From: Bacillota bacterium
GTDB lineage: Bacteria; Bacillota_I; Bacilli_A; RF39; UBA660
DNA length: 64,000 nt
Assembly: GCA_015059495.1 (NCBI GenBank)
Contig: SVAI01000001.1
Span: 735,811 to 799,810 of the forward strand
Reading direction: 5' to 3'
This document shows positions 1,319 through 46,425 of this stretch, one piece after another (the first letter of the stretch is position 1; each line of letters opens with the position of its first letter). A program made the translations under genes and the position numbers. The notes under the pieces were generated by a model. The model saw only the letters and a list, made by a program, of their open reading frames with translations. It had not been told where the DNA came from and searched no databases.

Positions 1319-3289
1319 TCAATTATTAAAATCTAAATTTTTCATAATATTTTGATAGTTATTGTCAACATGTCCATTCTTTAAATATTCTTCACTATCT
1401 TTTTTAGTTTGCATCAATATTTTATAGTCTCTTCTTATATCTCCAACTTTAAATGCCATGTCTCCACTTTGTCTAATACCAAAAAGATCACCTTCACCAC
1501 GCATTTCAAAATCCTTTTCAGATATATAAAAACCATCATTAGATTCCTCTAAAACTTTTAATCTATCTATATCTTTATCACATATTAAATAACAATAAGA
1601 AGTTAAATCATTTCTACCTACACGACCTCTTAACTGATGAAGTGTAGCAAGACCAAATCTCTCAGAATTATAAATAGCCATAACAGTAGCATTCTTAACA
1701 TCAATACCTACTTCAATAACAGTAGTACTAATTAATATTTGAATATGTCCATTCTTATATTCTTCCATTACTCTGTTTTTTTCAATCTTAGACATCTTAC
1801 CATGTAATATATCTATATTTACTTTAGATCCAAAAGCTTTAACATAATTATCTTTTAATTTCTTAATATCATTTAAATCACTATCTTCTTCATCTTCAAT
1901 TAAAGGAGCTACTACATATATTTGATGACCACTTTTTAATTCATTCCACATATTTTCAAGTACATCTTTAATTTCACTTTCTTTTTTAACCATTGTAACT
2001 ATTTCTTTTCTATTAGCTGGTTTACTCTTAATTAAAGATATATCCATATCACCATATAACGCTAATGCATAAGTTCTAGGTATAGGTGTAGCACTCATAT
2101 AAATAACATCAGTTAAAGTACCTTTATTTTGTAATATATTTCTTTGATTAACACCAAATCTATGTTGTTCATCTGTTATTACTAAACCTAAATTATTAAA
2201 TTCTACATTATCACTTAATATAGCATGAGTACCTATTAATATATCTATTTCCCCTAGTCTTAACTTTTCAATAACTTTCTTCTTTTCTGATGCTTTTAAA
2301 CTACCTACTAATAAACCTATTTTAAGGTCTTTAAATAACTTTGTAAGTGTTTCATAGTGTTGTACTGCTAAAACTTCTGTAGGAGCCATTAAAGCACCTT
2401 GATAGCCACCTAAATAGTTAATATATAAACCAATCGTAGCAACAATAGTTTTACCTGATCCAACATCCCCTAATAATAATCTATTCATTCTTTGAGGACT
2501 AACTAAATCTCTATAAATATCATTAACAGATGTTTCTTGATCTTCAGTTAACTTAAAAGGTAAACTATTAATAAATTCATCTACTTTACTTTTATCTACT
2601 TCTCTTTTTAATCCTATATTATTAATAGTTCTCTTATACTTTAAATAATTCATCTTAAACATAAAAGTAAAGAATTCTTCATATATAGTTCTAAGCTTAG
2701 CTTGTTTTAATAACTTAATATCACTAGGATTATGTAATATACTAATAGCACTACTCTTATCTATAAAGTTATACTTTTCACTATAAATACTAGGTATATA
2801 ATCATCTATATTATATGAAGGAACACTATTAATTAATTTATTTAATTGTTTAGAAGTAATACCACTAGTTAAATGATATACACTTTCAATAGTAGGTTTA
2901 TCTATAACTTCAAACTTAATATCACTAGCAACAAAACTATTAGTCTTATTATTATATTTACCTATTAAAGATATCTCTTTTCCTCTAATTAAATTATTCT
3001 TCATAAATGCTCTATTAAATATAACAACTTTAACTATTTTATTTTCAGTAATAATTCTAAAATTTAAACTATTGAAATTTCTTCTTATATAAGCTACCTT
3101 AACATCACTTTCAATAACACCAGTAATTAACCCTGGATTATCTATTGTATTACTTAATGTAGTTCTATTTAACATATTATATCTATAAGGATAATATGTT
3201 AATAAATCATAAGTATTATATATATTTAATTTATTCAAATTTGATACAATTTTAGGGCCAATTCCCTTTATTTTACTTAATTCTTCCAT
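1319..3289 (-). CDS. recG: ATP-dependent DNA helicase RecG
   Basis: 656 aa. Walker A GDVGSGKT, DEQHRFG box and helicase C motifs. Wedge-domain N-terminus. Confidence 0.9.
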   Translation of the reverse strand: MEELSKIKGIGPKIVSNLNKLNIYNTYDLLTYYPYRYNMLNRTTLSNTIDNPGLITGVIESDVKVAYIRRNFNSLNFRIITENKIVKVVIFNRAFMKNNLIRGKEISLIGKYNNKTNSFVASDIKFEVIDKPTIESVYHLTSGITSKQLNKLINSVPSYNIDDYIPSIYSEKYNFIDKSSAISILHNPSDIKLLKQAKLRTIYEEFFTFMFKMNYLKYKRTINNIGLKREVDKSKVDEFINSLPFKLTEDQETSVNDIYRDLVSPQRMNRLLLGDVGSGKTIVATIGLYINYLGGYQGALMAPTEVLAVQHYETLTKLFKDLKIGLLVGSLKASEKKKVIEKLRLGEIDILIGTHAILSDNVEFNNLGLVITDEQHRFGVNQRNILQNKGTLTDVIYMSATPIPRTYALALYGDMDISLIKSKPANRKEIVTMVKKESEIKDVLENMWNELKSGHQIYVVAPLIEDEEDSDLNDIKKLKDNYVKAFGSKVNIDILHGKMSKIEKNRVMEEYKNGHIQILISTTVIEVGIDVKNATVMAIYNSERFGLATLHQLRGRVGRNDLTSYCYLICDKDIDRLKVLEESNDGFYISEKDFEMRGEGDLFGIRQSGDMAFKVGDIRRDYKILMQTKKDSEEYLKNGHVDNNYQNIMKNLDFNN

Positions 3290-3505
3290 ATTTCAATTAA
3301 CCTTTACATTTATATGTAAATTATACCAAAAAAGTGTTGACTTTTAAAGGCTTTTACATTAGTATAGTAAATACCAATTAGCTTATTGGTTAATTGGTGC
3401 TAGTATCACACTAGCCAACCCCTTTTTATTCTTTTTTTGAGGTAGTTCCCAAGGGGGTCTACCTCTTTTTTGTTTGTTATGATATAATTACTAAGGTGAT
3501 AATAA

Positions 3506-3772
3506 ATGAAAAAAGAAAAAAGATGGTTATATAGTGCTTTAATAATTACAACATATGTAATCTATATTATTGCAAGAACTATATATTATTTAATTAATAA
3601 TAAAACATATGGAGATGTATACTTTGAATTTATGTTCTATCCACATTTAATATTTATGTTAGCAGGACTAATATTAAACTACATCTTATATTTTAAAAAT
3701 AATAAATATCTAAAATACACTATGATACTATGTTATATCATTGGTGTTATATTCTTATTTATAAACAAATAA
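3506..3772 (+). CDS. small integral membrane protein (hypothetical)
   Basis: 88 aa with 2-3 predicted TM helices. TGaTATAAT extended -10 and AGGTGA RBS upstream. Confidence 0.4.
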   Translation: MKKEKRWLYSALIITTYVIYIIARTIYYLINNKTYGDVYFEFMFYPHLIFMLAGLILNYILYFKNNKYLKYTMILCYIIGVIFLFINK

Positions 3773-3777
3773 AAGAC

Positions 3778-4872
3778 TCAAGATTCACTTGAGTCTTTAT
3801 TTTCTAATACTTTAATATCTACTTTATTAATAGCATCAAAACGTTTAGTAATCTTATCAGTAGTAATATTAATATCTTTAATATCTTTAGTTACTGTTTC
3901 AATACTTCTATTTAACTTATCCCAACGTACTCTATACTTACTAAATTCATCACTTAACTTAGATAATTCTAAATGAATTACTTTAGCATATTTATCTCTT
4001 TCCATATTCTTTAATATCATTTGAATAATAGATAATGTAGACATTAATGTAGTTGGAGATGTAATCCATACTCTCTTATCATAAGCATACTTTAATAAAT
4101 CATTATGATATGCATTAATCTCTGCAAATATTGCCTCAGCTGGTAAGAACATAATAGCTTGATCTGTTGTTTCACCTTTAATAATATACTTAGTTGATAT
4201 AGCATCAATATGCTTTTTAACATCACTCTTAAATAACTTAGCAGCTGCTTCTCTTTCAGTCATAGTTAATGATTTATCAGTCATTCTTTGATAATTTTCT
4301 AATGGGAACTTAGAGTCAATACCAATAGTACCAAGTGGCGCAGGAGCATAAAGTATTGCATCTACAATATAATCATTACTCATCTTATGTTGTAATTCAT
4401 ATATCTTAGAATTATTTTCTCCAAATATAGAACTTAAAATATAATTTAAATTAACTTCACCAAATATACCTCTAGTCTTTTTATCAGTTAATACACTTTG
4501 TAAAGAAACTATTTCAGATGATAATCCATCTATCTTCTTTTGTGCTTCATCTATCTTAGTTAATCTCTCTAAAATATTAGTAAATGTTTTATTAGTCTTT
4601 TCAAAATTAACATCTAATCTTTCATTTACTTTATCATTAATCTTATTTAATCTATCTTCAATTTTATCATTTAATTTATCAAAATCATCTCTTAAATTCT
4701 TTGAAAAATCAATCTTAAAATCTGCAATATCCTTTGTCATAGTAGTTTCAAATTTACCTAATCTTTCAGTAACATTTACTTCACTACCTCTATTTTTACT
4801 AACTTTAATTAATAATATAATTACAAGTATTATTAATAAACTAACTAATCCAATTATTATATAACTTTCCAT
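3778..4872 (-). CDS. rmuC: DNA recombination protein RmuC
   Basis: N-terminal TM helix, long coiled coil, then a C-terminal RmuC-type nuclease-like region (VDAILYAPAPLGTIGIDSKFPLENYQ). Confidence 0.65.
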   Translation of the reverse strand: MESYIIIGLVSLLIILVIILLIKVSKNRGSEVNVTERLGKFETTMTKDIADFKIDFSKNLRDDFDKLNDKIEDRLNKINDKVNERLDVNFEKTNKTFTNILERLTKIDEAQKKIDGLSSEIVSLQSVLTDKKTRGIFGEVNLNYILSSIFGENNSKIYELQHKMSNDYIVDAILYAPAPLGTIGIDSKFPLENYQRMTDKSLTMTEREAAAKLFKSDVKKHIDAISTKYIIKGETTDQAIMFLPAEAIFAEINAYHNDLLKYAYDKRVWITSPTTLMSTLSIIQMILKNMERDKYAKVIHLELSKLSDEFSKYRVRWDKLNRSIETVTKDIKDINITTDKITKRFDAINKVDIKVLENKDSSES

Positions 4873-4927
4873 AATATCTACCTCATATATATAATAACAC
4901 TAAAAGTAATACTTTATAAAGTATTAC

Positions 4928-5197
4928 TTAATTATTTAACAAAACTTGTACAACCTTATATCCATATAATTCAAGTATAGATACTACTCTTCTACTTTTA
5001 TTACCTTTGCTACAATAAATATAATATGTTTCATCTTTATTTAATAATCTATCTCTATTATAAAGTAATGTATCTTTATCTATATTAATAGCACCATTAA
5101 CATGGTGTTTTAAATATACTTCCTTACTCTCTATATCAATTAACTTACCCATTGAAGAATTATATTCATTAATATTAATAGTTTTAATAATAATCAC
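4928..5197 (-). CDS. single-domain rhodanese-like sulfurtransferase
   Basis: 89 aa. Active-site loop YIYCSKGNKSRR with catalytic Cys. Confidence 0.5.
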   Translation of the reverse strand: MIIIKTININEYNSSMGKLIDIESKEVYLKHHVNGAINIDKDTLLYNRDRLLNKDETYYIYCSKGNKSRRVVSILELYGYKVVQVLLNN

Positions 5198-5244
5198 CTC
5201 ATAATATTATATGAAATAAAAAAAGTTTAGTATAACTAAACTTT

Positions 5245-7566
5245 TTATTCATCATCTCCAAAGAAATCATCAAAGAATTCATCATCAGAAATAACATTTT
5301 CATCAACTACAATACTATCGGCATCAACGTTAACTCTTGGTTTAGGTACATCCATAGTTACACTAGGTTGTACAACATTTGGAGTTTGTACAGGTACAAC
5401 GTTTGGTGTAGAAACTGGAGTAACTTGTGGTGTTTCAACAACTGGAGTTGGTTTAACATCAACTTCTGGAGCAGGAACACTAACTGGTTCCTTCTTAATC
5501 ATATTATCAATACTTGGAAGTTCAATATTAGCTTCCTTAATATCATCTTCAATAATCTTCTTATTTTCAATAGCATCAGCTTTTTCTTCTTTTTCTAATT
5601 TAGCAAGTTCAGCTTTCTTTCTTGCTTCTTCAGCATCAAGCTCTGCTATCTTTTTATCAATATCTCTCATCATTTGATCGATATCAAGTTCAGATAAACC
5701 TCCAGGTCCAAAAGGATTCTTAGGCATTCCACCACCCATAGGGTTAGGTCCCATTGGATTTGGTCCCATAGGTCCAGGACCCATTGGAGGAATTCCTCCC
5801 ATAAATGGATTAAATCCTGGTCCCATACCCAATGGTTGAGACATTGAATTCATTGTTTGTTCTTGTTTTTTAGCTTTAACATAAGCTTTAATATCAAATA
5901 CTTCGATTGGTTTTACTTCTCTTGTTGGATATTTAGCTGGAGTTGTTGTATGTCCCCAATCTGTTTTAAAGTTAACTGGTAACTTAGTCTTAAATGGATG
6001 TGATCTTAAACGTAATAAAATCGCATCAGGCCAGTGCATATGTTGTAAGTCAGTAACTGTAATTAATGGAGTTGAAGCAGTCTTATCATCTTTCTTAGAC
6101 TTAACTTCACCACAGACTTTAGATATTTCTTCTAAAGCAGCTAACTCAGTAGAAATTAAGTAAATTGTGTTACCGCAGTTACCTTTAATTACTTCTCCTA
6201 CTTCTTTACCATATACATCATTTAACTGTGCATAGTTTTGAATAATAAATGTAAATCTTATTTTACGTGAACGTGCAGCAGAAACCATTGAATCAACATC
6301 TTTTAATGGAGGCATGTTTGCAAACTCATCTAAGATAAAGTTTGTTCTATATGGTAATTTACCACCATTTTCTTGAGCAACATCAATTAATGTTTCATAA
6401 CATTGTTTAACAAAGATAGTAGCAAGGCCATGATATGTTGTTTTTTCATCATGAATAATTAAGAATACTGCAGTCTTACCCTTACCAATATCTCTCATAT
6501 CAAAATCACTATGACCTAACATTTCAGATAGGTTATCACGTGATGTAAATGTTCTAATCTTTTCTCTAAATGAAGCTAAGATACCACCTTGAGTTTCATT
6601 AGGAGATTCAATAGTACCAGATGCAAATGTATAAGCATTTGACTTAGTACCCATCATTTTAAAATACTCGTTAATATATTTAGATGTACCAAATCTCTCA
6701 TCACCATCAGTAGTCATCGCATTAATTGAGTTTAAGTTAGTTTCTTCTTCTTTAGCATTTTCAAATAATGATAATGCACAACCTGCAAAGAAACTTGATG
6801 CAGACTTTTCCCAGAATGGGTCACTCTTATTAGTAACATCTAAGATTGAAGATGAAACATCATCTAAAAGCTCAATTGCTTTATCTTTATTACCTGCTTT
6901 ATAAAATTGATATGGTAAAGCAAGTGGATTCCATGCAGAACCATGTGTTGGTTCTCTGAAGTTTAATACAATAACTTTATATCCTAACGATTTTAAATAT
7001 TCAGCGCTTTCTTGATAAATTTCACCCTTAGGGTCTGTAATAATCATTGATTCATTATTCTTAGCTAAAATATTAACCATTGGTTTAACAACACATAATG
7101 TTTTACCTGAACCAGATGAACCAATAACTAATGAGTGGAACTCACCATTATCAACCCAAACATGACCTTTTTTATCAGCATAAACAGGAATACCAGCAGC
7201 ATTAGTTGATTGAGCATTAGAATCAATCATTTCAATATCATCTGCTTCTTTCATTTCCTTTAATTTAGCCCATCTATTATATCCTTTTTCTTCTTTTTCT
7301 CCTATTTTTAACCCTATTCCAGATCCATCTTTAGAGAATATATAAGAAGATACACTTGTAAATATTACTATTAAAGATGCAATAAATAATGTAAATGTAA
7401 TACCAATATATTTACCTGTAAAAGCTTCAAATGGTACTAAACCATAAAGTTTTCCATGAGCACCAAATTCAACAAAATTCAATACTGCTATTGCACATAA
7501 GTAAAGTAATAGTATACAAAATATAATAAAAATTATTAAATCATCTTTTGATACCCTAAATTTCAT
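5245..7566 (-). CDS. TraG/VirD4(TrwB)-family type IV coupling-protein-like ATPase with disordered C-terminal tail
   Basis: Two N-terminal TM helices. Walker A VIGSSGSGKT, ITDPKGEIY, SAWNPL, Walker B NFILDEFANMPPL, and a TraG-D_C-like IIQNYAQL stretch. The C-terminus carries PMGPNPMGPNPMGGG repeats, a coiled coil, a P/T/V-rich stretch and an acidic DDEFFDDFFGDDE end. Confidence 0.6.
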   Translation of the reverse strand: MKFRVSKDDLIIFIIFCILLLYLCAIAVLNFVEFGAHGKLYGLVPFEAFTGKYIGITFTLFIASLIVIFTSVSSYIFSKDGSGIGLKIGEKEEKGYNRWAKLKEMKEADDIEMIDSNAQSTNAAGIPVYADKKGHVWVDNGEFHSLVIGSSGSGKTLCVVKPMVNILAKNNESMIITDPKGEIYQESAEYLKSLGYKVIVLNFREPTHGSAWNPLALPYQFYKAGNKDKAIELLDDVSSSILDVTNKSDPFWEKSASSFFAGCALSLFENAKEEETNLNSINAMTTDGDERFGTSKYINEYFKMMGTKSNAYTFASGTIESPNETQGGILASFREKIRTFTSRDNLSEMLGHSDFDMRDIGKGKTAVFLIIHDEKTTYHGLATIFVKQCYETLIDVAQENGGKLPYRTNFILDEFANMPPLKDVDSMVSAARSRKIRFTFIIQNYAQLNDVYGKEVGEVIKGNCGNTIYLISTELAALEEISKVCGEVKSKKDDKTASTPLITVTDLQHMHWPDAILLRLRSHPFKTKLPVNFKTDWGHTTTPAKYPTREVKPIEVFDIKAYVKAKKQEQTMNSMSQPLGMGPGFNPFMGGIPPMGPGPMGPNPMGPNPMGGGMPKNPFGPGGLSELDIDQMMRDIDKKIAELDAEEARKKAELAKLEKEEKADAIENKKIIEDDIKEANIELPSIDNMIKKEPVSVPAPEVDVKPTPVVETPQVTPVSTPNVVPVQTPNVVQPSVTMDVPKPRVNVDADSIVVDENVISDDEFFDDFFGDDE

Positions 7567-7610
7567 ATATAATCACCTAATCTTTTATCATTATACTACA
7601 TATAATTAAT

Positions 7611-8384
7611 TTAATCTATTACATAATTACTATTTTTATAATTAATAATTACATTTGTAACATTACTACTTTCAGCAAGATAACCTTCTATTTTATTTAA
7701 TATAATACTATCATTACTATTATCTAAAATATTAATAATAGAATTAATATTATAAACATATAAAGCATCTTCTTTTCTCTCATCTATTAAAGTAATAACT
7801 TCATTATTATACTTTATTAAAACTAAATTATAATAATTATTAATATTATCATTATCTTCCATTGAAGATAAAACTATTATTTCATCTTCAACACCATTCT
7901 TATCTAAATCAATATCTACTACTTCATTAGTAGTTAAATATTTAAATGAACTAATACCATAATTTTGTAATAATAAATATTTATCATCATCATTTATTTC
8001 TCTAACAGTATATTCTCTAGGTACTACTTCAAAATCATTAGATACAGCAAGTAATCTACCTTTATAAGAAACAAATTCATATTTATCATTTAATAAATTC
8101 CATTTAGCAACATATTTTAATCTATAATTACCAAAATATTTATTATCTACAAATACCTTCATATTATTTAACGCTTCGATAGTATTTTTACTAGCCTTTG
8201 AAAAACTATTCTTCTCATATTTATATATGCCAGATTCACCAACAACCATATAATAAGTTGCAGTTTTTGTTGGTGTATTATTAGTTGTTGTACCTTGTTC
8301 TGGTTTACCAAGAACAAAGTACATTACTAATCCATATATTGAAAATATTACAATAGCAATTATTAACCCTTTTATATTTTTCAT
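7611..8384 (-). CDS. membrane-anchored hypothetical protein
   Basis: 257 aa with an N-terminal signal-anchor. It sits between the T4CP-like gene and the hydrolase gene. Confidence 0.4.
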   Translation of the reverse strand: MKNIKGLIIAIVIFSIYGLVMYFVLGKPEQGTTTNNTPTKTATYYMVVGESGIYKYEKNSFSKASKNTIEALNNMKVFVDNKYFGNYRLKYVAKWNLLNDKYEFVSYKGRLLAVSNDFEVVPREYTVREINDDDKYLLLQNYGISSFKYLTTNEVVDIDLDKNGVEDEIIVLSSMEDNDNINNYYNLVLIKYNNEVITLIDERKEDALYVYNINSIINILDNSNDSIILNKIEGYLAESSNVTNVIINYKNSNYVID

Positions 8385-8395
8385 ATCTTTTTCTC

Positions 8396-10789
8396 CTATT
8401 TAGCTGGTCTACAGAAATATGTACCATTGCCTTTATATAGTGAAACACTAACTTGATCTGGTTGTGGTTTAGGTACTGTATGATTTTTGTCTTGCCATTG
8501 ACCATGTGCAGCAAACTCTTGGTTGTTACCAATATACATTGATACATGACCTATACTCTTATAATTATCACTATTAGCATAACCATTACCTGCATAGAAT
8601 ATTAAATCTCCAACAGACAAGCTGCCACTAGAAATAACTTTACCATTCTTTTCACACCATCTATATATTTCACCAGATGTATCTGAACTATCATAAATTT
8701 TATAACTGAAGTGTCCATATGCTCTAGATACCATTGAAGAACAATCTACATATCCATCTTGATGCCTATTACTTTGAGAATAACTCCAACTATCATATGT
8801 AGCAACAGCATATTCAGCTACTCTCTTACCTAATGTTAATAAATCACCAGTAGCAACCGCATCTCCTTCTTCAGTACATGATTCTCCACCTAAATCAAAT
8901 ACTTGTTGTCTAGTTTCACTCATCCTAGAAACTTGCCATTTAGCATAAGCACTTTGATCTTCATCTGTAGTAGGAACACAACTTGCCTCTGATCCAGTAC
9001 ATTTATTTCCTTCAGCACAAGCAGCTTCAACAACACTTTGCCTTTCTTCACTTAAATACTCTCTTATATAAGGAAAGTAATAACAACCTCCAACACCTGA
9101 TCCACCTGGATTTAGCCAAACACGACCTATATAAGAATACTTCATCATCATTTGATATGCAGTAGCATAATTATGATTCTTTATATTATTAATAAATCCC
9201 ATAACACCAGCATCAAATGAAGGGAACTGTTGACATTGTTTTTCACTAGCACCGTTAAAACATCCTAAACCCCAATAGTTGTTAGATGAACCACCTGGGT
9301 CAAATCCTTCTCTAACAGCTCTAACTACAACCATCTCAGGGTTAAAGTTATTTTCAACTGAAATATCATATATTCTTCCAGCATTAGATTTAAACGCTCC
9401 ATTATTAACATTAGACATAACATAATTAATAAATTCTTCTCTAGATAATGTAGTTTCAGTTAATGATATATCACTACAATAACTACCATATTCTCCACCA
9501 GAACCACCAAATTTAACTACATTATAAATATGTCCTTCACCAGTAGCTTTCCAGTCATAGAAATGATATAAAATACCATGATAATTTTGATCCATTTTCT
9601 CAACTAAATACCAAGCAGCCCATGGTGAAAAACTATCTTTATCTGCATCACCTTGTTTAATATAATTAGAATCAACTGTTGAATCTATCCAATCCTTTAT
9701 ATAGTACATATCATCTTGAGATAATACATATACTTCTCCATCATAAGTTGTAGTAACTTCTTTATAAGTAAAATTATCATCTATTTTTAATTCACTTAAA
9801 TTTATAGGATCTAAAGAGAATACCTTATTATGAGTATATTCAATAGCATCAAATATAACTTGATTTTCATCATCTTCTTTAGGGTCAAAATAAGGTTGAT
9901 CTATTTCAAACTCACATGTATTAGATGACATATTATTAGAATTATAATATAAGTTAGTTCTATAAATAATCGCTAATGCTCTTAAAACTTCTTCATTATC
10001 TATTTCTTTATAATTTTTAACAGCCATTTGATAAGCTAAATATTCTTTATTAGTAACAGTTTCTTCTTTTTCTACTAAAACAGTACCTTCCCATTCTTCC
10101 CATTTTACTTTAACATTATCACAATAATTAACATACATATTAGTTACATTAATCTTTTCATCAGTAATAGATGATGTAACAATAAATACTACTGCAATAA
10201 CTAGTAAAATTAAAAGTAATATTCCAAGAATAGGTAATAAAAAAGGTAATACTCTTTCAACAAGGAATACAAATATCTTCTTTCTAACAACAGCTTTAGT
10301 TTTTTCTTTAGCTACTTGAGCAGCAGCACTTGCAGCATTTTCTCCTTCTTCTTTTGCTTTTTTTACTACTTGATTAGCAGCTCCAACTGCACTAGCCATC
10401 TTACTAGAAGCTTCTTTAGCCTTGTTATTAGCAGTAGTCTTCTTATTTTTATCATCTTGATTTTCATCATTTTTCTTTTTGTTATTATTTCTTAAGTTAT
10501 TAATTTTATTATTAATAATTTGAGACATTGAATCTTTAGTTGGTAACTTAGAAGCACCAACTCTATTTCTTTGTCTAGCATTTTGAAGTTGACTATCCAT
10601 TACAACATTCTCATTATTATCTACTTCTTCTTCAACATCATCTTCAATATCAGGAACATTATTTAATGGAGTTTCCATTTCTTCATTTTTAATATCATTA
10701 TCATTTAAAGTATCTATTGGATTAATTTTCCTAGGTTGTCTAGGCAATCCATTGGTAGTGTTATTATTATTTTCATTATTATCACTCAT
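8396..10789 (-). CDS. membrane-anchored cell-wall hydrolase with C-terminal NlpC/P60 (C40) peptidase domain
   Basis: The N-terminus is N/K/E-rich low complexity with one TM segment (LPFLLPILGILLLILLVIAVVFIV), followed by a large extracellular region. The C-terminus has NlpC/P60 signatures (DCSSMVSRAYGH...GDLIFY...IGHVSMYIG). Cys-rich mid-region. Confidence 0.6.
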   Translation of the reverse strand: MSDNNENNNNTTNGLPRQPRKINPIDTLNDNDIKNEEMETPLNNVPDIEDDVEEEVDNNENVVMDSQLQNARQRNRVGASKLPTKDSMSQIINNKINNLRNNNKKKNDENQDDKNKKTTANNKAKEASSKMASAVGAANQVVKKAKEEGENAASAAAQVAKEKTKAVVRKKIFVFLVERVLPFLLPILGILLLILLVIAVVFIVTSSITDEKINVTNMYVNYCDNVKVKWEEWEGTVLVEKEETVTNKEYLAYQMAVKNYKEIDNEEVLRALAIIYRTNLYYNSNNMSSNTCEFEIDQPYFDPKEDDENQVIFDAIEYTHNKVFSLDPINLSELKIDDNFTYKEVTTTYDGEVYVLSQDDMYYIKDWIDSTVDSNYIKQGDADKDSFSPWAAWYLVEKMDQNYHGILYHFYDWKATGEGHIYNVVKFGGSGGEYGSYCSDISLTETTLSREEFINYVMSNVNNGAFKSNAGRIYDISVENNFNPEMVVVRAVREGFDPGGSSNNYWGLGCFNGASEKQCQQFPSFDAGVMGFINNIKNHNYATAYQMMMKYSYIGRVWLNPGGSGVGGCYYFPYIREYLSEERQSVVEAACAEGNKCTGSEASCVPTTDEDQSAYAKWQVSRMSETRQQVFDLGGESCTEEGDAVATGDLLTLGKRVAEYAVATYDSWSYSQSNRHQDGYVDCSSMVSRAYGHFSYKIYDSSDTSGEIYRWCEKNGKVISSGSLSVGDLIFYAGNGYANSDNYKSIGHVSMYIGNNQEFAAHGQWQDKNHTVPKPQPDQVSVSLYKGNGTYFCRPAK

Positions 10790-10849
10790 AGTTTCACACC
10801 ACCTTCACTCTAAATATTTTAACATAAATACTATAAAATATAAAGAAAT

Positions 10850-10883
10850 AAAAAAAACGATATACTAAATATCGTATTTTTTT
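10850..10883. terminator. bidirectional intrinsic terminator
   Basis: ACGATAT-actaa-ATATCGT hairpin flanked by an A-run and a T-run. Confidence 0.5.
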
Positions 10884-11137
10884 CTTATTCTAGATTTTGC
10901 AGTATTGGCGTTTGCTTTTTTTAATTCGTTATAAGTCTTTTGAACACGTTCAAATGTTACTGGTTTAAAGTCATCTAAATGCTTATTAACCGTAACAACG
11001 TTTGCTCTTCCAACGCCAGTAATTGAAATAACTTTTTCATATCCGCAGTCTAAACACTTACATTTACTATTTTCTGTAAAATTGTCTAAAACACCTGCAA
11101 ACCAAATCTCATGTTGACAATCATTATTTTGCATCAC
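10865..11137 (-). CDS. zinc-ribbon small protein (hypothetical)
   Basis: 90 aa. The first pair CxxH...CxC (CQHEIW...CKC) and the second CxxC (LDCGYEK) suggest a 4-ligand zinc ribbon. Confidence 0.35.
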   Translation of the reverse strand: MMQNNDCQHEIWFAGVLDNFTENSKCKCLDCGYEKVISITGVGRANVVTVNKHLDDFKPVTFERVQKTYNELKKANANTAKSRIRKKYDI

Positions 11138-11172
11138 ACTATTCCCCCAACAAGTACTGTATTATATATTAA

Positions 11173-12303
11173 CTATAGATACTTGTCAATAGTTTTAAAT
11201 TCACTATTAATTCTTAAATTAGTGTCATCTAATTCTTTAAATAATTCTTTTTGTTTCTTATCTAATTTTTCAGGAATTAATACATTAACTATAACGTACA
11301 TATCTCCCTTTCTTCCAGTTCTAACATTTTCAACACCTTTAGATTTAATTCTTAACTTAGTACCTGCTTGAGTACCAGCATCTATTTCAATAACTAAGTT
11401 TCCATATACAGTAGGAATTTCTTTTTTACATCCTAATACTGCTTCAGTAATAGTTATAGGTAAATCTAAATAAATGTCGTCACCTTCTCTTTGGAATATA
11501 CCATGTTCTTTAACCTTAAATTGAATATAAATATCTCCATTAGGTCCACCATTAAATCCCTTAGATCCTTTACCAGTAATTCTAAGTTCAGATCCATTAT
11601 CTACACCTGCAGGTATATCAACTTCAATAGTTTTATTCTTAGTAACATGACCATGTCCTTTACAATCAGAACATACTCTTCCAAATGTTCTACCTGTACC
11701 ACCACAATCAGGACAAGTAGTTTGTTGTTGAATTACACCAAATATACTTTGTGTTTGACTAACAACTCTACCAGTACCACCACAAGTTGAACAAGTTTTT
11801 TCATCAAATCCACCTTTACCATTACAAGTAGCACAGTCTTCATCTAAATCAAGTTTTAATTCTTTCTTACATCCAAATATAGCTTCTTCAAAAGTTAAAT
11901 TAACTCTAACTAGAGTATCATCACCTTTTCTAGCTCTATTCTTTTTAGCACCTCTTCTTGATGAGAAACCAAATCCCCCACCAAACATATCTTCAAAAAT
12001 ATCACCTAAATCGATATCTTCAAAACCTTGGAAGCCACTAAATCCACCATAGTTGCCGTATGGATTACCACCAGCACCATTTTCAAATGCAGCATGACCA
12101 AATTGATCATATTGTTTTCTTTTTTGTTCATCACCTAATACAGAATATGCTTCTCCTACTTCTTTAAACTTAGCTTCTGCACCTTCTTCTTTATTAATAT
12201 CAGGATGATATTTCTTAGCCATCTTTCTAAAGGCTGATTTTATCTCTGCTTGTGAAGCATTCTTATCAACACCTAAAACTTCATAATAATCTTTTTTTGC
12301 CAA
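11173..12303 (-). CDS. dnaJ: molecular chaperone DnaJ
   Basis: J-domain with HPD, G/F-rich linker, four CxxCxGxG zinc-finger repeats, C-terminal domain. Confidence 0.92.
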
Positions 12304-12304
12304 A

Positions 12305-14098
12305 TTACTTCACCTCGTCTCTTAATTCAACGAATTTATCTAATAAACTATCAAAATAATTAATAGCTTTTATATAAACTTGTTTATCACTAATATCAAT
12401 ACCTAATACTTTATAGATATCAACATTATCTTTATCTCCTCCTGTAGATAAGAATTTAATATACTTATCCAACATTTCTTTATTACCAGATAATATTTCA
12501 CTAGCAACATAAGATGCTATTGAAATACAAAAAGCATATGCAAATAAATAATAATTCATATAATAATGACTACGTCTAGCCCATGATAGACCAGCATATT
12601 CATCTTTATTAACAGTATCACCATAATATTTATCAATACTATCTATAGTCAATTTATTCATATAATCAGCAGTAATAAAATTGCCATCATTAACATAATT
12701 ATAGAAATCTAATTCCATTTTACCTTCTCTAACAGCACCAAATAAATTAGATACAATTACATCTAAAACATTTTCAATACCTTTTAATTGTTCTTTCTTA
12801 TCTTTACCATTATTAGCTAAATATGAAGATAATAAACATTCATTAGTTAATGATGCTACTTCTGCAATTAAAGATCCAACTTCTCTATATTGTTTAGGAT
12901 TATTTTCTATTAAATATTGATGATGAACATCATGTCCACCTTCGTGAATAATAGTAGATACAGAAGTTAAATCATAGTTATAACTCATTAATATTCTAGA
13001 TTCAAAATCTAAACCAGAAGCACAATATCCACCAGAACACTTACCTGGATAACAAGCATAATCTATATGTCTATTATCAAATACTTTTTTAAAGTGATTG
13101 TAATAATCTTCACCTAATACTTTAATAGAATTCAAACATAATTCTTGAGCTTCTTCGATAGAATATTCTTTATCTAATTTAACCATCTCAAGATTTAAAT
13201 CACACATATCTAATGTATCTAAATTTTTAGTTTCTTTTAATACTTTAAAAAACTTTTGTAACTTATCAACATTTTCTTCAACAGCACTAATTAATGCATC
13301 ATATGCTGATTGAGGCATCTTATTATGAAACAATTTAGCATCCCATGCATCTTTATAATTATGTAATTTACAATTTGTAATATTACTCTTAACATATCCA
13401 TTTAATAATATAGCAGACATATCAGCATATTGTTTTAATACTTTATTATATTTTTTTCTAACTTCTTTTCTTATTTCTTTATTTTCATTTTTATAAAATC
13501 TATCCAAATTAGTTGGAGTAATCTTTTCTTCTTCACCATCTATATTAATAGTTCCATAATCATGTAACTTATTTAACATAGTTGAAGAAGCACTATCAAA
13601 ATTAGGACTAGCATTATTTAATTCATTAATAATTATTTCTTTATCTGTAGATAAAATATGATCTTTAGCTCTATAAATATCATCTAATATAGCTTTATAT
13701 TCTTTTAACTTATCATTTTCAAATAATTTATCATATTCTTCTTTAGATAACTCTAATAATTCAGATGAAAAGAATGCGATAGCATTAGAATACTTAGTTT
13801 CTAAATCATCAGTTTTATTCATTCTTTCCATGTTTTCAGATACACCTAATTCTTGATCATTAACTAAAAATGCATATACACTTAATCTATATAATAAAGT
13901 CATAGTATCAGTATCTAATCTTAAAAATTCATATAATTTATTACTATCTTTAGTACAATTTTTATATGTTGATAATTTATCTACATTACTTTTAGCAATA
14001 TCAAAATCTTTATTAAAAGATTCAATATCTGGATATATTTCTTTTAAATCCCACTTATATTGTTCTGGAACATCACTTCTACTATTATATTTTTGCAT
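12305..14098 (-). CDS. pepF: oligoendopeptidase F (M3B family)
   Basis: 597 aa with the HEGGH zinc-binding motif ([10 protein letters not shown]) and M3B architecture. It lies between dnaK and dnaJ. Confidence 0.85.
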
Positions 14099-19796: not shown

Positions 19797-21086
19797 GTGA
19801 GGAATATGAACGAAGAAGCTAAAAAAAGTCCAATATTTCATAAGTTCGACTACGATAAGATTCCTATCGTAGATTTAGTTAACCAAATCATTACTGACGC
19901 TTATGAAAAAAGAGCTTCAGATATTCACTTCGATCCAGCTGAAACTGACCTTAACGTTAGAATCAGAGTCGATGGTGAATTAGTTCTATACGCTATTGTA
20001 CCTGAACATGTAAAAAAGAACTTATCAACAAGAATTAAAATCATCGCTGGTATGAATATTACTGAAACAAGATTACCACAAGATGGTGCTATAAAAATGG
20101 AATTTGATGGAAACCCAATAGACATGCGTGTCTCTTCCCTTCCTTCAGTAAACGGTGAAAAAATCGTTATCCGTATCTTAGACTATTCAAGAAGTTTAGA
20201 TGGTTTAGAAGTAATTGGACTTTCTAGTGAAAACTTAAAAACAATTAAAAATATGTTAAATGCTCAAAACGGTATCATCCTAGTAACCGGTGCTACTGGT
20301 TCAGGTAAATCAACAACTGTATACTCAATGTTACAAAGATTAAATAAAGTTGAAACAAATGTCATCACAGTTGAAGATCCAGTAGAAATGAAAGTTGCTG
20401 GACTAAACCAAGTTCAAGTTATGAGTGATATCGGTCTTACATTTGCAGCCGCACTAAGAAGTATCTTACGTCAAGACCCAGATGTAATAATGATCGGAGA
20501 GATCCGTGATGATGAAACTGCTCGTATCGCTGTACGTGCTGCCATCACTGGTCACTTAGTTTTATCAACAATCCACACAAACAATACATTAAATACAATC
20601 GAAAGACTTTTAGATATGGATGTTGAACGTTACCTATTAGGTTCAGCCTTAACTGGTATAATTTCACAAAGACTTACTAAAAAACTTTGTCCTAAATGTA
20701 AAAAATCAAGACCAACAACAAAATATGAAAAAATCGTATTTGAAAAAGCATTAGGAAGAAAAGTTGATGCAGTTTATGAACCAGTAGGATGTCAACATTG
20801 TATTAAAGGTTACTTAGGTCGTGTTCCAGTACACGAAGTTTTAGAATTAAACCAAGAAATCAGAGACGCTATTGTTAACAACATGAGAGAAGAAGACTTA
20901 AGAGAATTAGTTTATGAAAAATCACATGTAAAATCTATCCTACAAGATGGATTATTCAAAGTTCTTCAAGGTGAAACTTCTTTTGAAGAAGTATTAAGAG
21001 TTGTTGACGTTGAAACAGATTTCGGAGATAAAGACTCTGAACTAAAAGCAGCACTTCTTGGTAAATATCAAGAGATGAATGAATAA
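19797..21086 (+). CDS. GspE/PilB-family secretion/pilus-assembly ATPase
   Basis: N2 domain, Walker A VTGATGSGKSTT, Asp and His boxes, and the tetracysteine CPKCKK...CQHC motif. The track start is a GTG. An ATG three codons downstream (MNEEAKK) is equally plausible. Confidence 0.8.
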   Translation: MRNMNEEAKKSPIFHKFDYDKIPIVDLVNQIITDAYEKRASDIHFDPAETDLNVRIRVDGELVLYAIVPEHVKKNLSTRIKIIAGMNITETRLPQDGAIKMEFDGNPIDMRVSSLPSVNGEKIVIRILDYSRSLDGLEVIGLSSENLKTIKNMLNAQNGIILVTGATGSGKSTTVYSMLQRLNKVETNVITVEDPVEMKVAGLNQVQVMSDIGLTFAAALRSILRQDPDVIMIGEIRDDETARIAVRAAITGHLVLSTIHTNNTLNTIERLLDMDVERYLLGSALTGIISQRLTKKLCPKCKKSRPTTKYEKIVFEKALGRKVDAVYEPVGCQHCIKGYLGRVPVHEVLELNQEIRDAIVNNMREEDLRELVYEKSHVKSILQDGLFKVLQGETSFEEVLRVVDVETDFGDKDSELKAALLGKYQEMNE

Positions 21087-29837: not shown

Positions 29838-30251
29838 ATGTTTTTTGATAATCAAAATGATTTAAATATTATTATTAATGATATATCTAATGATAATAAT
29901 ACCCTAACTAATGTAAAAGAAGGATTAATAAAAGGTAACATGTTTAATAAAGAATATATGCCTTATAAAAATATTGAGCCAAAATTAATTGAAGCTTTAA
30001 ATGAAGAATCTAAATTATTACTTAATATCTATGAATTAGATTTTGCTTTAATTGATTTATCACTATATCTAGACTTACATAAAGATGATGAAGATATCTA
30101 TAAAATATTTAAAATGTACCTAAATAAATATAATGATTATAAAAAATTATATGAAGAAAAATATTATATTTTATGCCAAGATAATACCTTAAAAGATACA
30201 TATACTTGGGTAGATAACTCAATAACTACTGGAGGTATAAAATATGTTTAA
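29838..30251 (+). CDS. CotJB-like protein (possibly CotJA-CotJB fusion)
   Basis: YELDFALIDLSLYLDLHKDDEDIYKIFKMYLNKYNDYKKLYEEKY resembles the CotJB motif (L-x-F-A-x-x-D-L-x-L-Y-L-D-T-H-P). It overlaps the CotJC-like gene by 8 nt. Confidence 0.5.
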   Translation: MFFDNQNDLNIIINDISNDNNTLTNVKEGLIKGNMFNKEYMPYKNIEPKLIEALNEESKLLLNIYELDFALIDLSLYLDLHKDDEDIYKIFKMYLNKYNDYKKLYEEKYYILCQDNTLKDTYTWVDNSITTGGIKYV

Positions 30252-30798
30252 GTTTGAAAAAAAATTAGAATATCCAATTAACATAACTAAAAAAGATTTA
30301 CCTATGGCTAAATACTTATTAACTGCTCTTGGAGGAAGTGCTGGCGAACTAGCAGCAGCAATTCGTTATTTCACTCAAAGTTTTTCAATGCCAGATGATA
30401 AAGGTAAAATGTTACTAAAAGATATAGCAACTGAAGAATTAGCTCATGTTGAAATCATATCTACTCTATTTACTGAACTTACTAAAGGTGCAACAATTAA
30501 TGAGTTAAAAGAATATGATTTAGCATGCTATTTTACTGAACATGGAACTGGTGTTTATCCTTCTAATGCTATAGGACTTCCTTTTACAAGTGAGTATATA
30601 GCATCAACAGGAAATCCAATCGTAGATCTAGCCGAAGATATGGCAGCAGAAGAAAAAGCTAGAGCATCATATGAAGCACTAATAGACCTATGTCAAAACG
30701 AAGAAGTATTAAACCCTTTACTTTTCCTACGTCAAAGAGAAGTAGTACACTACAACAGATTTAAAGAACTATATGAAGATTATAAAAATCGACTATAA
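30244..30798 (+). CDS. CotJC-like manganese catalase-family protein
   Basis: EKKLEYPINITKKDLPMAKYLLTALGGSAGELAAAIRYFTQSF...TEELAHVEIISTLF aligns closely with B. subtilis CotJC (ferritin-like di-metal site). Confidence 0.75.
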   Translation: MFKFEKKLEYPINITKKDLPMAKYLLTALGGSAGELAAAIRYFTQSFSMPDDKGKMLLKDIATEELAHVEIISTLFTELTKGATINELKEYDLACYFTEHGTGVYPSNAIGLPFTSEYIASTGNPIVDLAEDMAAEEKARASYEALIDLCQNEEVLNPLLFLRQREVVHYNRFKELYEDYKNRL

Positions 30799-36505: not shown

Positions 36506-37390
36506 TTATATATCATCATCTCCAATATAATCACTTAATACATCTGCTAATACTTTAATACTATTACTTACTTCTAATATATTATTATCTACTCCACCTA
36601 TTTCTACTACTATAAGATTATGAGAAAAGTCTTGATTGTATACCCCATTTACTCCTAAACCTTCTTTTTTTAATACTCCCTTTGATATTCCATTAACCTT
36701 CTTATTTAACATATCACTTAATTCATTAGATAACTTTAAATTATATTCATATGATTCATTTTCTAATCCAACTATAAACATTATCTTAGCATATACCTTA
36801 TCACTATTTAATGTAGTCATATCATAACTAGATGAATCTCTATGTATATCTATATAGTATTCATAAGTATTATTTTTTTCTAATAATATCCTACTAGCAT
36901 TATATGAATCTTTATATATCCAATTATTATCATCTAATATCTTTTTAATACTATTTAATTCTACATAAGATTCTATATTATTATTTTTTAAATATTCCTG
37001 TAATACATATGATGCTATTTTAACATTAGGTATAACTGAATATTCACTACTATAATCTAATTTATATTCTTCACTATCATGTGTATTATAAATATATATT
37101 AAACTCTTATTAAATCTTTTATTAACTTTATCTACATAACTAATAAAACTCTTATTATCACTTTTAATATTTTTATCTAATAATAAAGATACATTTAATA
37201 TATTATCTACATTATTAACTTTATAGTTTAATCCTTCATTTACTAAATAATTAATATACTTACTTGGATCTACTTCATTATCCAATATATTTAATGTTAT
37301 TTTAAAGAATACATACATAAAAATAATAAATAATATAAGTTTTAATAACTTATGTTTTCTTCTAGATTTAAACCTTTTCATAATAATCAC
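36506..37390 (-). CDS. spoIIP: stage II sporulation protein P (SpoIIP)-family protein
   Basis: Signal anchor, IYIYNTHDSEEY, IDIHRDSSS and GVYNQDFSHNLIVVEIGG. These match SpoIIP family signature blocks. Confidence 0.65.
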   Translation of the reverse strand: MIIMKRFKSRRKHKLLKLILFIIFMYVFFKITLNILDNEVDPSKYINYLVNEGLNYKVNNVDNILNVSLLLDKNIKSDNKSFISYVDKVNKRFNKSLIYIYNTHDSEEYKLDYSSEYSVIPNVKIASYVLQEYLKNNNIESYVELNSIKKILDDNNWIYKDSYNASRILLEKNNTYEYYIDIHRDSSSYDMTTLNSDKVYAKIMFIVGLENESYEYNLKLSNELSDMLNKKVNGISKGVLKKEGLGVNGVYNQDFSHNLIVVEIGGVDNNILEVSNSIKVLADVLSDYIGDDDI

Positions 37391-43115: not shown

Positions 43116-43550
43116 CTATAATAAAACATTAATTATTTTATTTATTATTAGTTCTTTATTCGAATACAAACTAACATCTATAAAAGTATTTAATATACCA
43201 TCATCTAGTTGGTCTACTTCTAAAGTTACAATTTGATAATTATTCTTAGTTAATTCATCTGAATATATATCACTAACTGTTATATTATTTATATTTTTGT
43301 TTTCTTTGTTAATTTTAATCATATCTATATTTTTATATTTATTAGTATCTAAATAATTAACAGTTAATTCTATCTTACATATATCATCACAACTAACATA
43401 TCCTTTTATTTTTTTAACATCATATATTTTAAAAATAAATAAAGATATTATGATAATACTAAAACTAATTAATATTAAATATATTAATATATTATATTTT
43501 GGTTTTAAACTTCTTAAATAACTTATATTATCAACCATTAAAACCACCAC
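43116..43550 (-). CDS. short membrane-anchored accessory protein of the bacteriocin exporter (HlyD/LcnD-like, truncated)
   Basis: 144 aa. N-terminal TM then a small beta-rich domain. It overlaps the ABC gene by 20 nt and precedes the peptide genes by 10 nt. Confidence 0.4.
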   Translation of the reverse strand: MVVLMVDNISYLRSLKPKYNILIYLILISFSIIIISLFIFKIYDVKKIKGYVSCDDICKIELTVNYLDTNKYKNIDMIKINKENKNINNITVSDIYSDELTKNNYQIVTLEVDQLDDGILNTFIDVSLYSNKELIINKIINVLL

Positions 43551-45657: not shown

Positions 45658-46425
45658 TTACTTAAATTTTACATTTTTACTATTTTTCTTAGATGTCTTC
45701 TTTACACCTTTAGCGTCAATAACCATATTTTTAATATCATTCAATTCTTTCCTTAAATCCTTAGCTAAGTTTGGATAGTTCTTAATTAAACGATTTTGCT
45801 TAAATCTAATCTTAGCAAGTTGACTTTGATGTTTACTTTCAAACATTTGAGGTATTAATTTTAATTTATCCTTCTTTAATTCTTCAGCAACTATTAATCT
45901 TGAACGTAAGTTATAAGCAATAAATACTGACCAAACAAAATCCGCAATAACTACAATAAATAATAAAACAGATGCCATAATTAAATACTTACTACTAATA
46001 CTTAATATTATATTATCTACTACTGGATTAATAATATATAAAATAATTAATATACCAAATCCAAATAGAATAGAATTTTGTAAACATATTCTACCATTAA
46101 TACTATCTCTTCTATATGAATAATCCCACCATTTATTATTAAATATTTTTTCAAATATATAACTAGTAAAATATTCTAATATAGATGTTATTAACATACC
46201 CATAACAAATACTATTATTGGATCATCTAAATATTCTTTTAAAGTGTATATAGTTAATATAGCACCAAAGCCATAAATTGGACAAAGAGGTCCAAATAAG
46301 AAACCTCTATTAACCCATTTCTTTTGTAAGAAACTACAATATATAACTTCACTAATATATCCTATTACACTATAAATAATAAATTGAATAAAAATATAGC
46401 TTAAATTATACATAATTATCACCAA
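45658..46425 (-). CDS. polytopic membrane protein (DUF1113 / 'ABC-transporter type IV'-like)
   Basis: 255 aa, ~6 TM helices. FGPLCPIYGFG and WWDYSY motifs are reminiscent of PF06541. A possible immunity or accessory role is speculative. Confidence 0.35.
   Translation of the reverse strand: MVIIMYNLSYIFIQFIIYSVIGYISEVIYCSFLQKKWVNRGFLFGPLCPIYGFGAILTIYTLKEYLDDPIIVFVMGMLITSILEYFTSYIFEKIFNNKWWDYSYRRDSINGRICLQNSILFGFGILIILYIINPVVDNIILSISSKYLIMASVLLFIVVIADFVWSVFIAYNLRSRLIVAEELKKDKLKLIPQMFESKHQSQLAKIRFKQNRLIKNYPNLAKDLRKELNDIKNMVIDAKGVKKTSKKNSKNVKFK

Follow-up and report, generated by a model that had tools for sequence, protein, structure and literature searches.

The three genes at positions 5245-10789 of the 64 kb stretch of Bacillota DNA analysed here (the window; contig SVAI01000001.1) probably form the distal, still functional part of a type IV secretion system (T4SS) of the monoderm MPF-FATA kind (MPF, mating-pair formation), fixed in the chromosome and vertically inherited in uncultured low-GC gut Bacilli. 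They are read from the minus strand and encode a 797-amino-acid (aa) membrane-anchored peptidoglycan hydrolase (8396-10789), a 257-aa membrane protein (p257; 7611-8384) and a 773-aa type IV coupling protein (T4CP; 5245-7566). When the open reading frames (ORFs) of related loci were clustered, the same trio was found in most relatives as the 3′ end of a conserved nine-gene T4SS cluster that includes VirB4. The preliminary description of this DNA had delimited the three ORFs correctly, had placed them between rmuC/recG and dnaJ, and had offered a decayed integrative and conjugative element (ICE) or a minimal envelope-translocation module as explanations; it had not listed the rhodanese gene (4928-5197) or the 90-aa ORF (10865-11137) on either side of the trio.

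The 773-aa protein (MBE6158886.1, annotated by NCBI as a hypothetical protein) is a T4CP of the VirD4/TraG type, CD1115 family. It matched T4SS-DNA_transf (PF02534; 1.5e-55, 189.4 bits against a cutoff of 20.1), TraG-D_C (PF12696; 2.3e-22, 79.7 bits, cutoff 22) and TrwB_AAD_bind (PF10412; 4.7e-20, 72.3 bits, cutoff 20.5) in Pfam, as well as the NCBIfam equivalog NF045973 ("VirD4-like, CD1115 family"; 284 bits, cutoff 250). An FtsK/SpoIIIE-type or other non-T4CP translocase was also considered for this ATPase, on the strength of an FtsK_SpoIIIE match to the P-loop region only (E 0.002, 18 bits, under the Pfam cutoff); set against the strong T4CP profiles, this match leaves such an identity next to no probability, and it was ruled out.

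Along the protein, two hydrophobic helices (aa ~9-33 and ~55-77; 7336-7542, minus strand) form the N-terminal membrane anchor and are followed by the NTPase and all-alpha domain region (aa 98-497; 6076-7275), covered by all three Pfam profiles. Walker A (GSSGSGKT) lies at aa 149-156 (7099-7122) and Walker B (ILDEF) at aa 411-415 (6316-6342). A scan of GTDB contigs with one genome per species found 403 relatives, and conservation was followed in 81 orthologues. Among these, hardly any variation is seen in the anchor, the P-loop, Walker B or the TraG-D_C block. The protein ends in a lineage-specific tail (aa 561-773; 5248-5886), delimited by per-column conservation across the 81 species. The PMGP repeat and the P/T-rich linker of the tail are not conserved, in contrast to a coiled coil at aa ~627-649 and an acidic-aromatic end, both conserved at ~90-100%. 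This end, PRVNVDADSIVVDENVISDDEFFDDFF (aa 743-769; DNA 5260-5340), finishes in SDDEFFDDFF. The conservation of the coiled coil and the DDEFFDDFF end across 81 species points to a conserved binding partner, by analogy with other T4CP tails; the acidic end might also mimic the C-terminal tip of SSB. In the nearest T4CPs from plasmids, identity is 30% and confined to aa 61-560, so that the tail is not covered; a sequence comparison of the T4CP with the PDB gave no match. Like other T4CPs, the protein would be a hexameric ATPase binding both substrate and DNA.

The 797-aa protein is a multidomain, CwlT-like peptidoglycan hydrolase and the equivalent of VirB1. A low-complexity, unconserved N-terminus (aa 1-171) precedes a transmembrane (TM) segment at aa ~172-204 (10178-10276, minus strand), placed by sequence and conservation profile. 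The ectodomain (aa 215-797) was modelled by AlphaFold with a predicted local distance difference test (pLDDT) score of 87.5. Its C-terminal NlpC/P60 endopeptidase domain (aa ~653-797; 8399-8833) matched PF00877 at aa 680-762 (6e-9, 36.3 bits, cutoff 23), and many NlpC/P60 structures were retrieved by Foldseek with TM-scores to the target of 0.7-0.79. Cys683-Ser684 is nearly invariant, and Cys683, His748 and His762, picked out by inspection, are candidates for the catalytic triad. Ectodomain 2 (aa ~450-631; 8897-9442) is putatively lysozyme/GH73-like, with an invariant NPE...R/A..E..NNYWG motif and conserved cysteines; Foldseek matched the GH73 enzyme LytB (7pj4) at E 4.6e-3, and the sequence profile of the domain retrieved LytB from the PDB at just E 0.075. 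Ectodomain 1 (aa 215-426; 9512-10147) is tentatively SpoIID-like. It is confidently folded in the AlphaFold model and matched Pfam SpoIID at 0.0021, below the cutoff, and TIGR02669 at 0.0014 in one orthologue (locus L059; L numbers denote loci of the analysis, mostly of related genomes), with SleC only at rank 50 of the Foldseek matches (E 0.05).

For the hydrolase as modelled, the best Foldseek matches were 4hpe (E 1.8e-6) and 4fdy (8.9e-5), both wall hydrolases of two domains, over ~381 columns and with a high root-mean-square deviation. Its best sequence match in the PDB is a hydrolase labelled "Tn916-like, CTn7-Orf16". In the relatives the hydrolase is located between VirB4 and the T4CP, and in the window it lies one gene from the T4CP. 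Orthologues keep the central lysozyme-like domain and swap the terminal catalytic domain, which can be NlpC/P60, CHAP, Peptidase_M23, Peptidase_C39_2 or Peptidase_M15_4 (homologues P0137-P0209; L059:6898-9120).

Between these two proteins, p257 is predicted by AlphaFold (pLDDT 86.9) to consist of a single TM helix (aa 4-25) and a beta-rich ectodomain. It is annotated as a hypothetical protein by NCBI, has no family match in Pfam or NCBIfam, and retrieved no PDB fold below E 0.3, TcpC (3ub1) coming at just E 1.7. In the clusters of the relatives the membrane protein preceding the T4CP has 250-300 aa, and the slot is variable: p257 occupies it here, and families c11, c12 and c15 elsewhere. Homology among these three positional analogues was sought with hidden Markov models (HMMs) and hhalign and rejected, the TM helix excepted. 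The protein-level claims of the preliminary description are thus borne out: a T4CP with two TM helices, Walker A and B motifs and a TraG-D_C block, its tail of PMGP repeats, coiled coil, P/T-rich stretch and acidic end, a 257-aa membrane protein, and a CwlT/Orf14-like hydrolase with a C-terminal NlpC/P60 domain.

In the relatives, the cluster begins with one to several pilin-like genes (family c3), followed by a VirB6-like, a VirB3-sized, a VirB4 N-terminal-like and a VirB4 gene and then by the hydrolase, the membrane protein and the T4CP. The c3 products are secreted proteins with two helices in their C-terminal domain, and 10 of 20 members matched PF18895 (T4SS_pilin; best 4.8e-5). The VirB6-like protein is polytopic (~720 aa) and weakly matched NF045889 (Mbov_0396 ICE membrane protein; 2.8e-6, 27 bits against a cutoff of 70), and the two-TM protein of ~103 aa has the size and place expected of VirB3. 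VirB4 is divided between a 190-aa protein resembling its N-terminal part (NF045975 at 2.5e-14; PF26593, TraC-like) and an ATPase whose length, 594 aa, is almost invariant (for example, c6 at L059:4488-5090 and c5 at 5090-6871). The ATPase matched NF045975 at 1e-106 (357.7 bits, below the cutoff of 590) and the CD1110 family at 4.7e-52 (177 bits, below 325). Judged by these profile scores, its nearest kin are the VirB4 proteins of Mycoplasma ICEs, and it forms a lineage related to the NF045975 and CD1110 equivalogs and a member of neither. A protein search gave 7,195 VirB4 matches, and a second locus scan was seeded with the VirB4 alignment. Among the matches listed, the one that shares its source set with the proteins of the window (P0069) comes from a different organism, in which the cluster is complete.

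In many relatives the T4SS cluster is immediately preceded by a Tad-like pilus operon (e.g., L110:3-5162, L158:262-2249, L053:1143-6574 and L003:1569-6480). It comprises genes for a CpaB-like protein, a T2SSE ATPase, two TadB/C-like proteins, two small pilins, two TadE-like proteins and a TadZ-like protein, the ATPase alone being assigned by profile (4.5e-26) and the others by size, order and sequence inspection. An assignment of these genes to a spoIIIA operon was rejected by inspection of gene sizes and order. The window itself holds a solitary PilB/ComGA-like T2SSE ATPase of 429 aa (19797-21086, plus strand) with a weak match to the Tad-like ATPase HMM (4.8e-12) and no adjoining pilin or platform genes. 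Housekeeping genes (FemAB, recG-yebC, glmM, ABC transporters) border the clusters on either side, and no relaxase or integrase was found in the flanks of the related clusters examined. The sole mobile-element gene seen near any of these clusters is of the IS605 OrfB/TnpB type (L100:2480-3619); it lies ahead of a FemAB pair that in turn precedes one of them.

The best 80 T4CP relatives all come from different uncultured Bacilli, are 54-67% identical to the window protein and align over nearly its full length, the extreme C-terminus included. Their genomes carry labels such as "Tenericutes", Mycoplasma sp. CAG:776, Coprobacillus sp. CAG:605, Clostridium sp. CAG:609, Firmicutes bacterium CAG:460, Candidatus Caccenecus and Ventrenecus, and we take them to belong to the GTDB order RFN20. 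A hydrolase gene is upstream of the T4CP in 52/81 loci, and the rhodanese gene directly 3′ of it in 70/81, often followed by genes for a VTT-domain protein and RmuC. Mean pairwise identity is 81% for VirB4, 68-71% for the T4CP and 72% for RmuC, values that are only roughly comparable as the subsets of loci differ; it is low for the hydrolase (22%) and the VirB6-like protein (28%). In Mantel tests on pairwise identities, VirB4 and the T4CP correlated with RmuC, VTT and rhodanese at rho 0.55-0.80 (p ≤ 0.002), including VirB4 with RmuC (rho 0.80, p 0.001) and the T4CP with RmuC (rho 0.61, p 0.002) and with the rhodanese (rho 0.77); these correlations are as strong as that between two flanking genes (rho 0.72). 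That the divergence of these two proteins tracks the flanking genes argues for their vertical inheritance. The locus is a conserved chromosomal one in at least 80 species, not the strain-specific island that the preliminary description had left as an alternative. Literature searches found no description of such a system in uncultured or RFN20-type Bacilli.

The trio genes are compositionally native and under purifying selection. Their GC content at third codon positions is 0.14, 0.07 and 0.12 against 0.112 ± 0.029 for the window, and their distances in relative synonymous codon usage are average or lower, so that the comparison with neighbouring genes, which the preliminary description had also raised, came out as native. 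A close relative, L163, has the identical synteny hrcA...dnaJ-p90-trio-rhodanese-rmuC-recG (p90, the 90-aa ORF). Against L163, dN/dS was 0.11 for the T4CP (core 0.075, tail 0.19), 0.19 for the hydrolase and 0.32 for p257, compared with 0.02-0.10 for the housekeeping neighbours (pepF 0.10, recG 0.10, dnaJ 0.07). Intact ORFs, native composition and low dN/dS together indicate that the genes are maintained by selection. As the preliminary description had stated, there is no relaxase, integrase, VirB4/VirB6 homologue or flanking repeat here: Pfam detected no integrase, relaxase or VirB4 among the window ORFs that have no obvious housekeeping identity, the 4.7 kb past the left end of the window contain no ICE hallmark genes, the flanks of locus L001 hold no recombinase or relaxase, and the search for att-like repeats flanking the module gave chance-level repeats only. 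No tRNA gene lies near the module, the nearest being at 55.7 kb.

In the clade of the window's T4CP, which includes L003, L004 and L031 (75-76% identity over aa 1-560), all loci are trio-only, and the VirB6-VirB4 block is not adjacent. The trio alone or with Tad genes only was found in L003, L004, L031, L053 and L054; in L003, genes for CpaB, CpaF and TadB/C abut the hydrolase gene directly. On the metagenome contigs L083, L088, L090, L120 and L143, the block from pilin to VirB4 continues into unrelated genes. Trio-only and block-only loci thus indicate that the T4SS is split in some genomes, its halves being seen on separate contigs. For the window and its three nearest relatives, we judge relocation of the VirB6-VirB4 block more likely than its loss.

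One other T4SS-related gene, the only one besides the trio, is retained in the window. It is an intact c3 gene (46428-47702, minus strand; c3 HMM 4e-31, also found by tblastn) for a secreted pilin-like protein of 424 aa with the C-terminal two-helix membrane domain; against PF18895 this copy does not reach 0.01. Its surroundings have the lowest GC content of the window (0.18-0.20), and its neighbours (45658-46425, 43531-45579 and 43116-43550) include a CmpB-like membrane protein (PF06541) and, by inspection, an ORF resembling C39-peptidase ABC exporters.

At ~25% GC, the window has a strongly negative GC skew, and almost all of its genes lie on the minus strand. The minus-strand gene order is hrcA, grpE, dnaK, pepF, dnaJ (11173-12303), p90, hydrolase, p257, T4CP, rhodanese, rmuC and recG (1319-3289). 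A promoter-like sequence, TTGACA-17-TATAAT with 12/12 matches, lies inside the 3′ end of dnaJ (11161-11189, minus strand) and possibly starts a transcription unit; it is the sole perfect match in 3400-12500, where the total of promoter-like sites does not exceed the shuffle expectation. The sole terminator-like hairpin on this strand in the same interval (3772-3798, 11 bp stem) follows rmuC, which is possibly the last gene of the unit. With gaps of 11-75 bp between the genes, these sites suggest a single transcription unit p90-hydrolase-p257-T4CP-rhodanese-rmuC. The single-domain rhodanese (89 aa; 4928-5197, minus strand; Pfam 2.2e-11) is the most constant neighbour of the T4CP, and rmuC (3778-4872, minus strand; Pfam RmuC 1.8e-58) is a conserved chromosomal flank, in many related loci only a few genes removed from the T4CP on its 3′ side. 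A TfoX_N gene also neighbours the locus, as do rmuC and recG. In L163, an additional 275-aa gene (13179-14006), absent in the window, stands between the T4CP and rhodanese genes, so that this junction is not inviolable.

Membership of the Cys-rich p90 (10865-11137, minus strand) in the module is doubtful and was set aside. It has no Pfam or NCBIfam match and no homologue in the other 160 loci, only in the closest relative, L163 (68% identity, dN/dS 0.20).

In the proposed working of the system, the hydrolase, anchored by its one TM segment, would open the peptidoglycan locally with up to three wall-cutting domains (SpoIID-like, lysozyme/GH73-like and NlpC/P60). A membrane hexamer of the T4CP would recruit the substrate or an adaptor through the coiled coil and the DDEFFDDFF end, and ATP hydrolysis by the T4CP would drive the substrate into a channel formed by the VirB6-like, VirB3-sized and VirB4 proteins. 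The fast-evolving p257 may act at the surface as a scaffold or as a contact or specificity factor.

Several observations weigh against the trio being part of a T4SS that still functions. Searches of the window by tblastn and HMMs with the relatives' VirB4, VirB6-like and VirB3-sized proteins gave nothing, nor did the 4.7 kb to its left. No substrate, relaxase or origin of transfer (oriT) was identified, and the VirB8-like fold (NTF2-like, as in PrgL/TcpC) was not found for p257. The relatives are all metagenome-assembled genomes, the co-divergence comes from pairwise identities and not from reconciled trees, and the boundaries of the transcription unit come from consensus scans only. Moreover, the whole nearest clade is trio-only, so that an ancestral loss of VirB4 is possible, and the trio could have been exapted there to work without a T4SS channel. 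The T4CP might then be, for instance, a DNA translocase in the membrane or a motor for some substrate, coupled to remodelling of the nearby wall when the cell takes up or releases DNA, divides or sporulates. We regard such a VirB4-independent module as rather improbable: the T4CP core and tail are equally conserved in genomes with the full cluster, a sign of a single common function, related genomes carry split VirB4 blocks elsewhere, a pilin-like T4SS gene is kept in the window, and we know of no T4CP shown to work without VirB4. Such a module would nonetheless accord with the trio-only state of all four members of the clade, in which the trio is still under purifying selection, with the T4CP of another clade that has just uppS and a rhodanese gene alongside, and with rmuC, recG and the TfoX_N gene as neighbours; it also has a precedent in Patescibacteria, where t4cp is dispensable in one strain (PMC12102498). 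Much less probable still is a decayed ICE that has lost integrase, relaxase and VirB4 and is heading towards pseudogenes. Both the T4CP and the hydrolase come from families that typify the conjugative elements of Firmicutes, and the missing integrase, relaxase and VirB4 would be expected under decay, but the three long ORFs are intact in a genome of 25% GC, dN/dS is 0.11-0.32 with native codon usage, at least 80 species have the same synteny, with a divergence that parallels that of core flanks, identity to the nearest plasmid T4CP is only 30%, and no att repeats or tRNA target accompany the locus. This explanation of the preliminary description is thus largely refuted; its other one, the minimal envelope-translocation module, is supported in part, in that for the lineage as a whole the trio is no self-contained unit and in most relatives forms the 3′ end of a VirB4-containing cluster.

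Returning to the trio as the distal part of a chromosomally fixed T4SS, our best guess for the substrate is DNA, moved in a relaxase-independent exchange, or one with an unrecognised relaxase, resembling mycoplasma chromosomal transfer. The conjugation-type T4CP family with its all-alpha domain and the mycoplasma precedent lean this way, and a protein or contact-dependent function is nearly as likely. The corresponding rival, a T4SS that secretes proteins or effectors for contact-dependent interaction with host or neighbouring cells in place of DNA transfer, along the lines proposed for Type-IVC systems of streptococci and for Patescibacteria (PMC12102498), differs in the substrate only, and taken as a whole we find it unlikely, though it deserves to be kept in mind. 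It would suit a system that is relaxase-less in every context examined, goes together with a Tad-like pilus operon and several pilin-like paralogues, evolves very fast in its surface parts (the hydrolase and VirB6-like protein, as against VirB4), probably stems from a small genome, as suggested by a longest contig of 1.26 Mb, and has an analogue in Patescibacteria (PMC12102498). On the other side, no effector candidate was identified, and the T4CP retains the all-alpha DNA-binding-type domain (PF10412, 72 bits) of a family known from conjugative elements. A broader proposal is equally tentative: the lineage, at the level of an order and probably of small genomes, may have domesticated a Mycoplasma-ICE-like, relaxase-less T4SS, with ATPases conserved at least as well as housekeeping genes nearby, together with the Tad-like operon as core machinery with a non-plasmid function, the T4CP and hydrolase standing alone without VirB4 in the clade of the window. 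That function would be relaxase-independent chromosomal DNA exchange or contact-dependent cell interaction.

T4CPs and the wall hydrolases of T4SSs are usually taken as signs of a mobile element. In these gut bacteria, abundant though uncultured, they behave like core genes, and pipelines for finding ICEs would miss or mislabel such loci. The system may plausibly be related, as a chromosomal form, to the machinery of Mycoplasma ICEs and leads to testable predictions on DNA exchange or cell contact in these organisms. If it is a domesticated T4SS, it would add to Patescibacteria a second lineage of small genomes that has independently fixed a relaxase-less monoderm T4SS.

In the hrcA-grpE-dnaK-dnaJ operon of the window, an oligoendopeptidase F gene (Peptidase_M3; 12305-14098, minus strand) is inserted between dnaK and dnaJ, as in L163. 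Two paralogous large surface proteins with similar N-termini (38763-40961 and 50433-52397, both minus strand) contain long arrays of ~22-aa repeats (…NxSxMF…LxxLDxSxFNTSNVT…). The ORFs at 29838-30798 (plus strand), 36506-37390 and 52452-53795 (both minus strand) are presumably sporulation or spore-coat-like (CotJB/CotJC-like, SpoIIP-like); if so, the organism would seem to have a wall and possibly to form spores, although its relatives are labelled "Tenericutes".

Among known proteins, the CD1115-family VirD4-like proteins (NF045973), for example those of Bacillus thuringiensis plasmids, share the two-helix anchor, Walker A/B motifs, all-alpha domain and TraG-D_C block with the T4CP, and the plasmid T4CP matches carry the CD1115 annotation. 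The protein of the window differs from them in its 210-aa tail, its chromosomal location, its vertical inheritance and the absence of a nearby relaxase. The hydrolase shares with CwlT (ICEBs1) and Orf14 (Tn916) a C-terminal NlpC/P60 domain, putatively preceded, as in these, by a lysozyme-like domain, in a membrane-anchored or secreted, T4SS-encoded enzyme, of which TcpG (pCW3) and PrgK (pCF10) are functional equivalents. It is far larger than these (797 aa), with a long low-complexity cytoplasmic N-terminus and an additional SpoIID-like domain, and is ~13-20% identical to the solved CwlT-like structures, to which we take 4hpe (CD630_03720) and 4fdy (SAV0400) to belong. At the level of the whole system, the Type-IVC T4SS (VirB1, VirB4, VirB6, VirD4) is a minimal one known from streptococci and Clostridioides difficile, the latter with a preprint, 10.1101/2021.07.12.452133. 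The present system has the same minimal monoderm set, with the hydrolase as VirB1 equivalent beside VirB4, VirB6-like and VirD4 proteins; Type-IVC systems sit on genomic islands or conjugative transposons, whereas the present one is lineage-fixed and flanked by core genes.

The Mycoplasma ICE (TraG/VirD4 encoded by CDS5 and TraE/VirB4 by CDS17 of ICEA) has a similarly simplified monoderm T4SS gene set. The relatives' VirB4 matches Mbov_0397 best (1e-106) and their polytopic protein weakly matches Mbov_0396, and the relatives are often labelled "Tenericutes" or "Mycoplasma sp."; both scores fall under the equivalog cutoffs (358 against 590 and 27 against 70 bits). ICEA transfers itself, whereas nothing marks a transferable unit in the window, and mycoplasma chromosomal transfer sets a precedent for exchanging DNA unconventionally with the help of related machinery (PMC6030558). 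The system described here has no DDE recombinase, is not mobile and includes a wall hydrolase, in contrast to the wall-less mycoplasmas.

By analogy, its closest counterpart is the relaxase-less chromosomal T4SS of Patescibacteria. That system is mostly without relaxase, chromosomal and widespread in a small-genome lineage, and is MPF-FATA-like, with VirB2-like pilins (PF18895) and a TrsD/VirB4-N-terminal-like protein; most t4cp genes lie far from virB4, and in the one studied strain with a dispensable t4cp other T4SS genes were essential, for which exaptation was suggested (PMC12102498). The related loci analysed here likewise combine a chromosomal, lineage-wide distribution and the lack of a relaxase with VirB2-like pilins and a TrsD-like VirB4 N-terminal protein. 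They differ from the Patescibacteria system in belonging to another phylum, in a T4CP that is highly conserved and usually encoded in the cluster, and in the Tad-like operon fused upstream.

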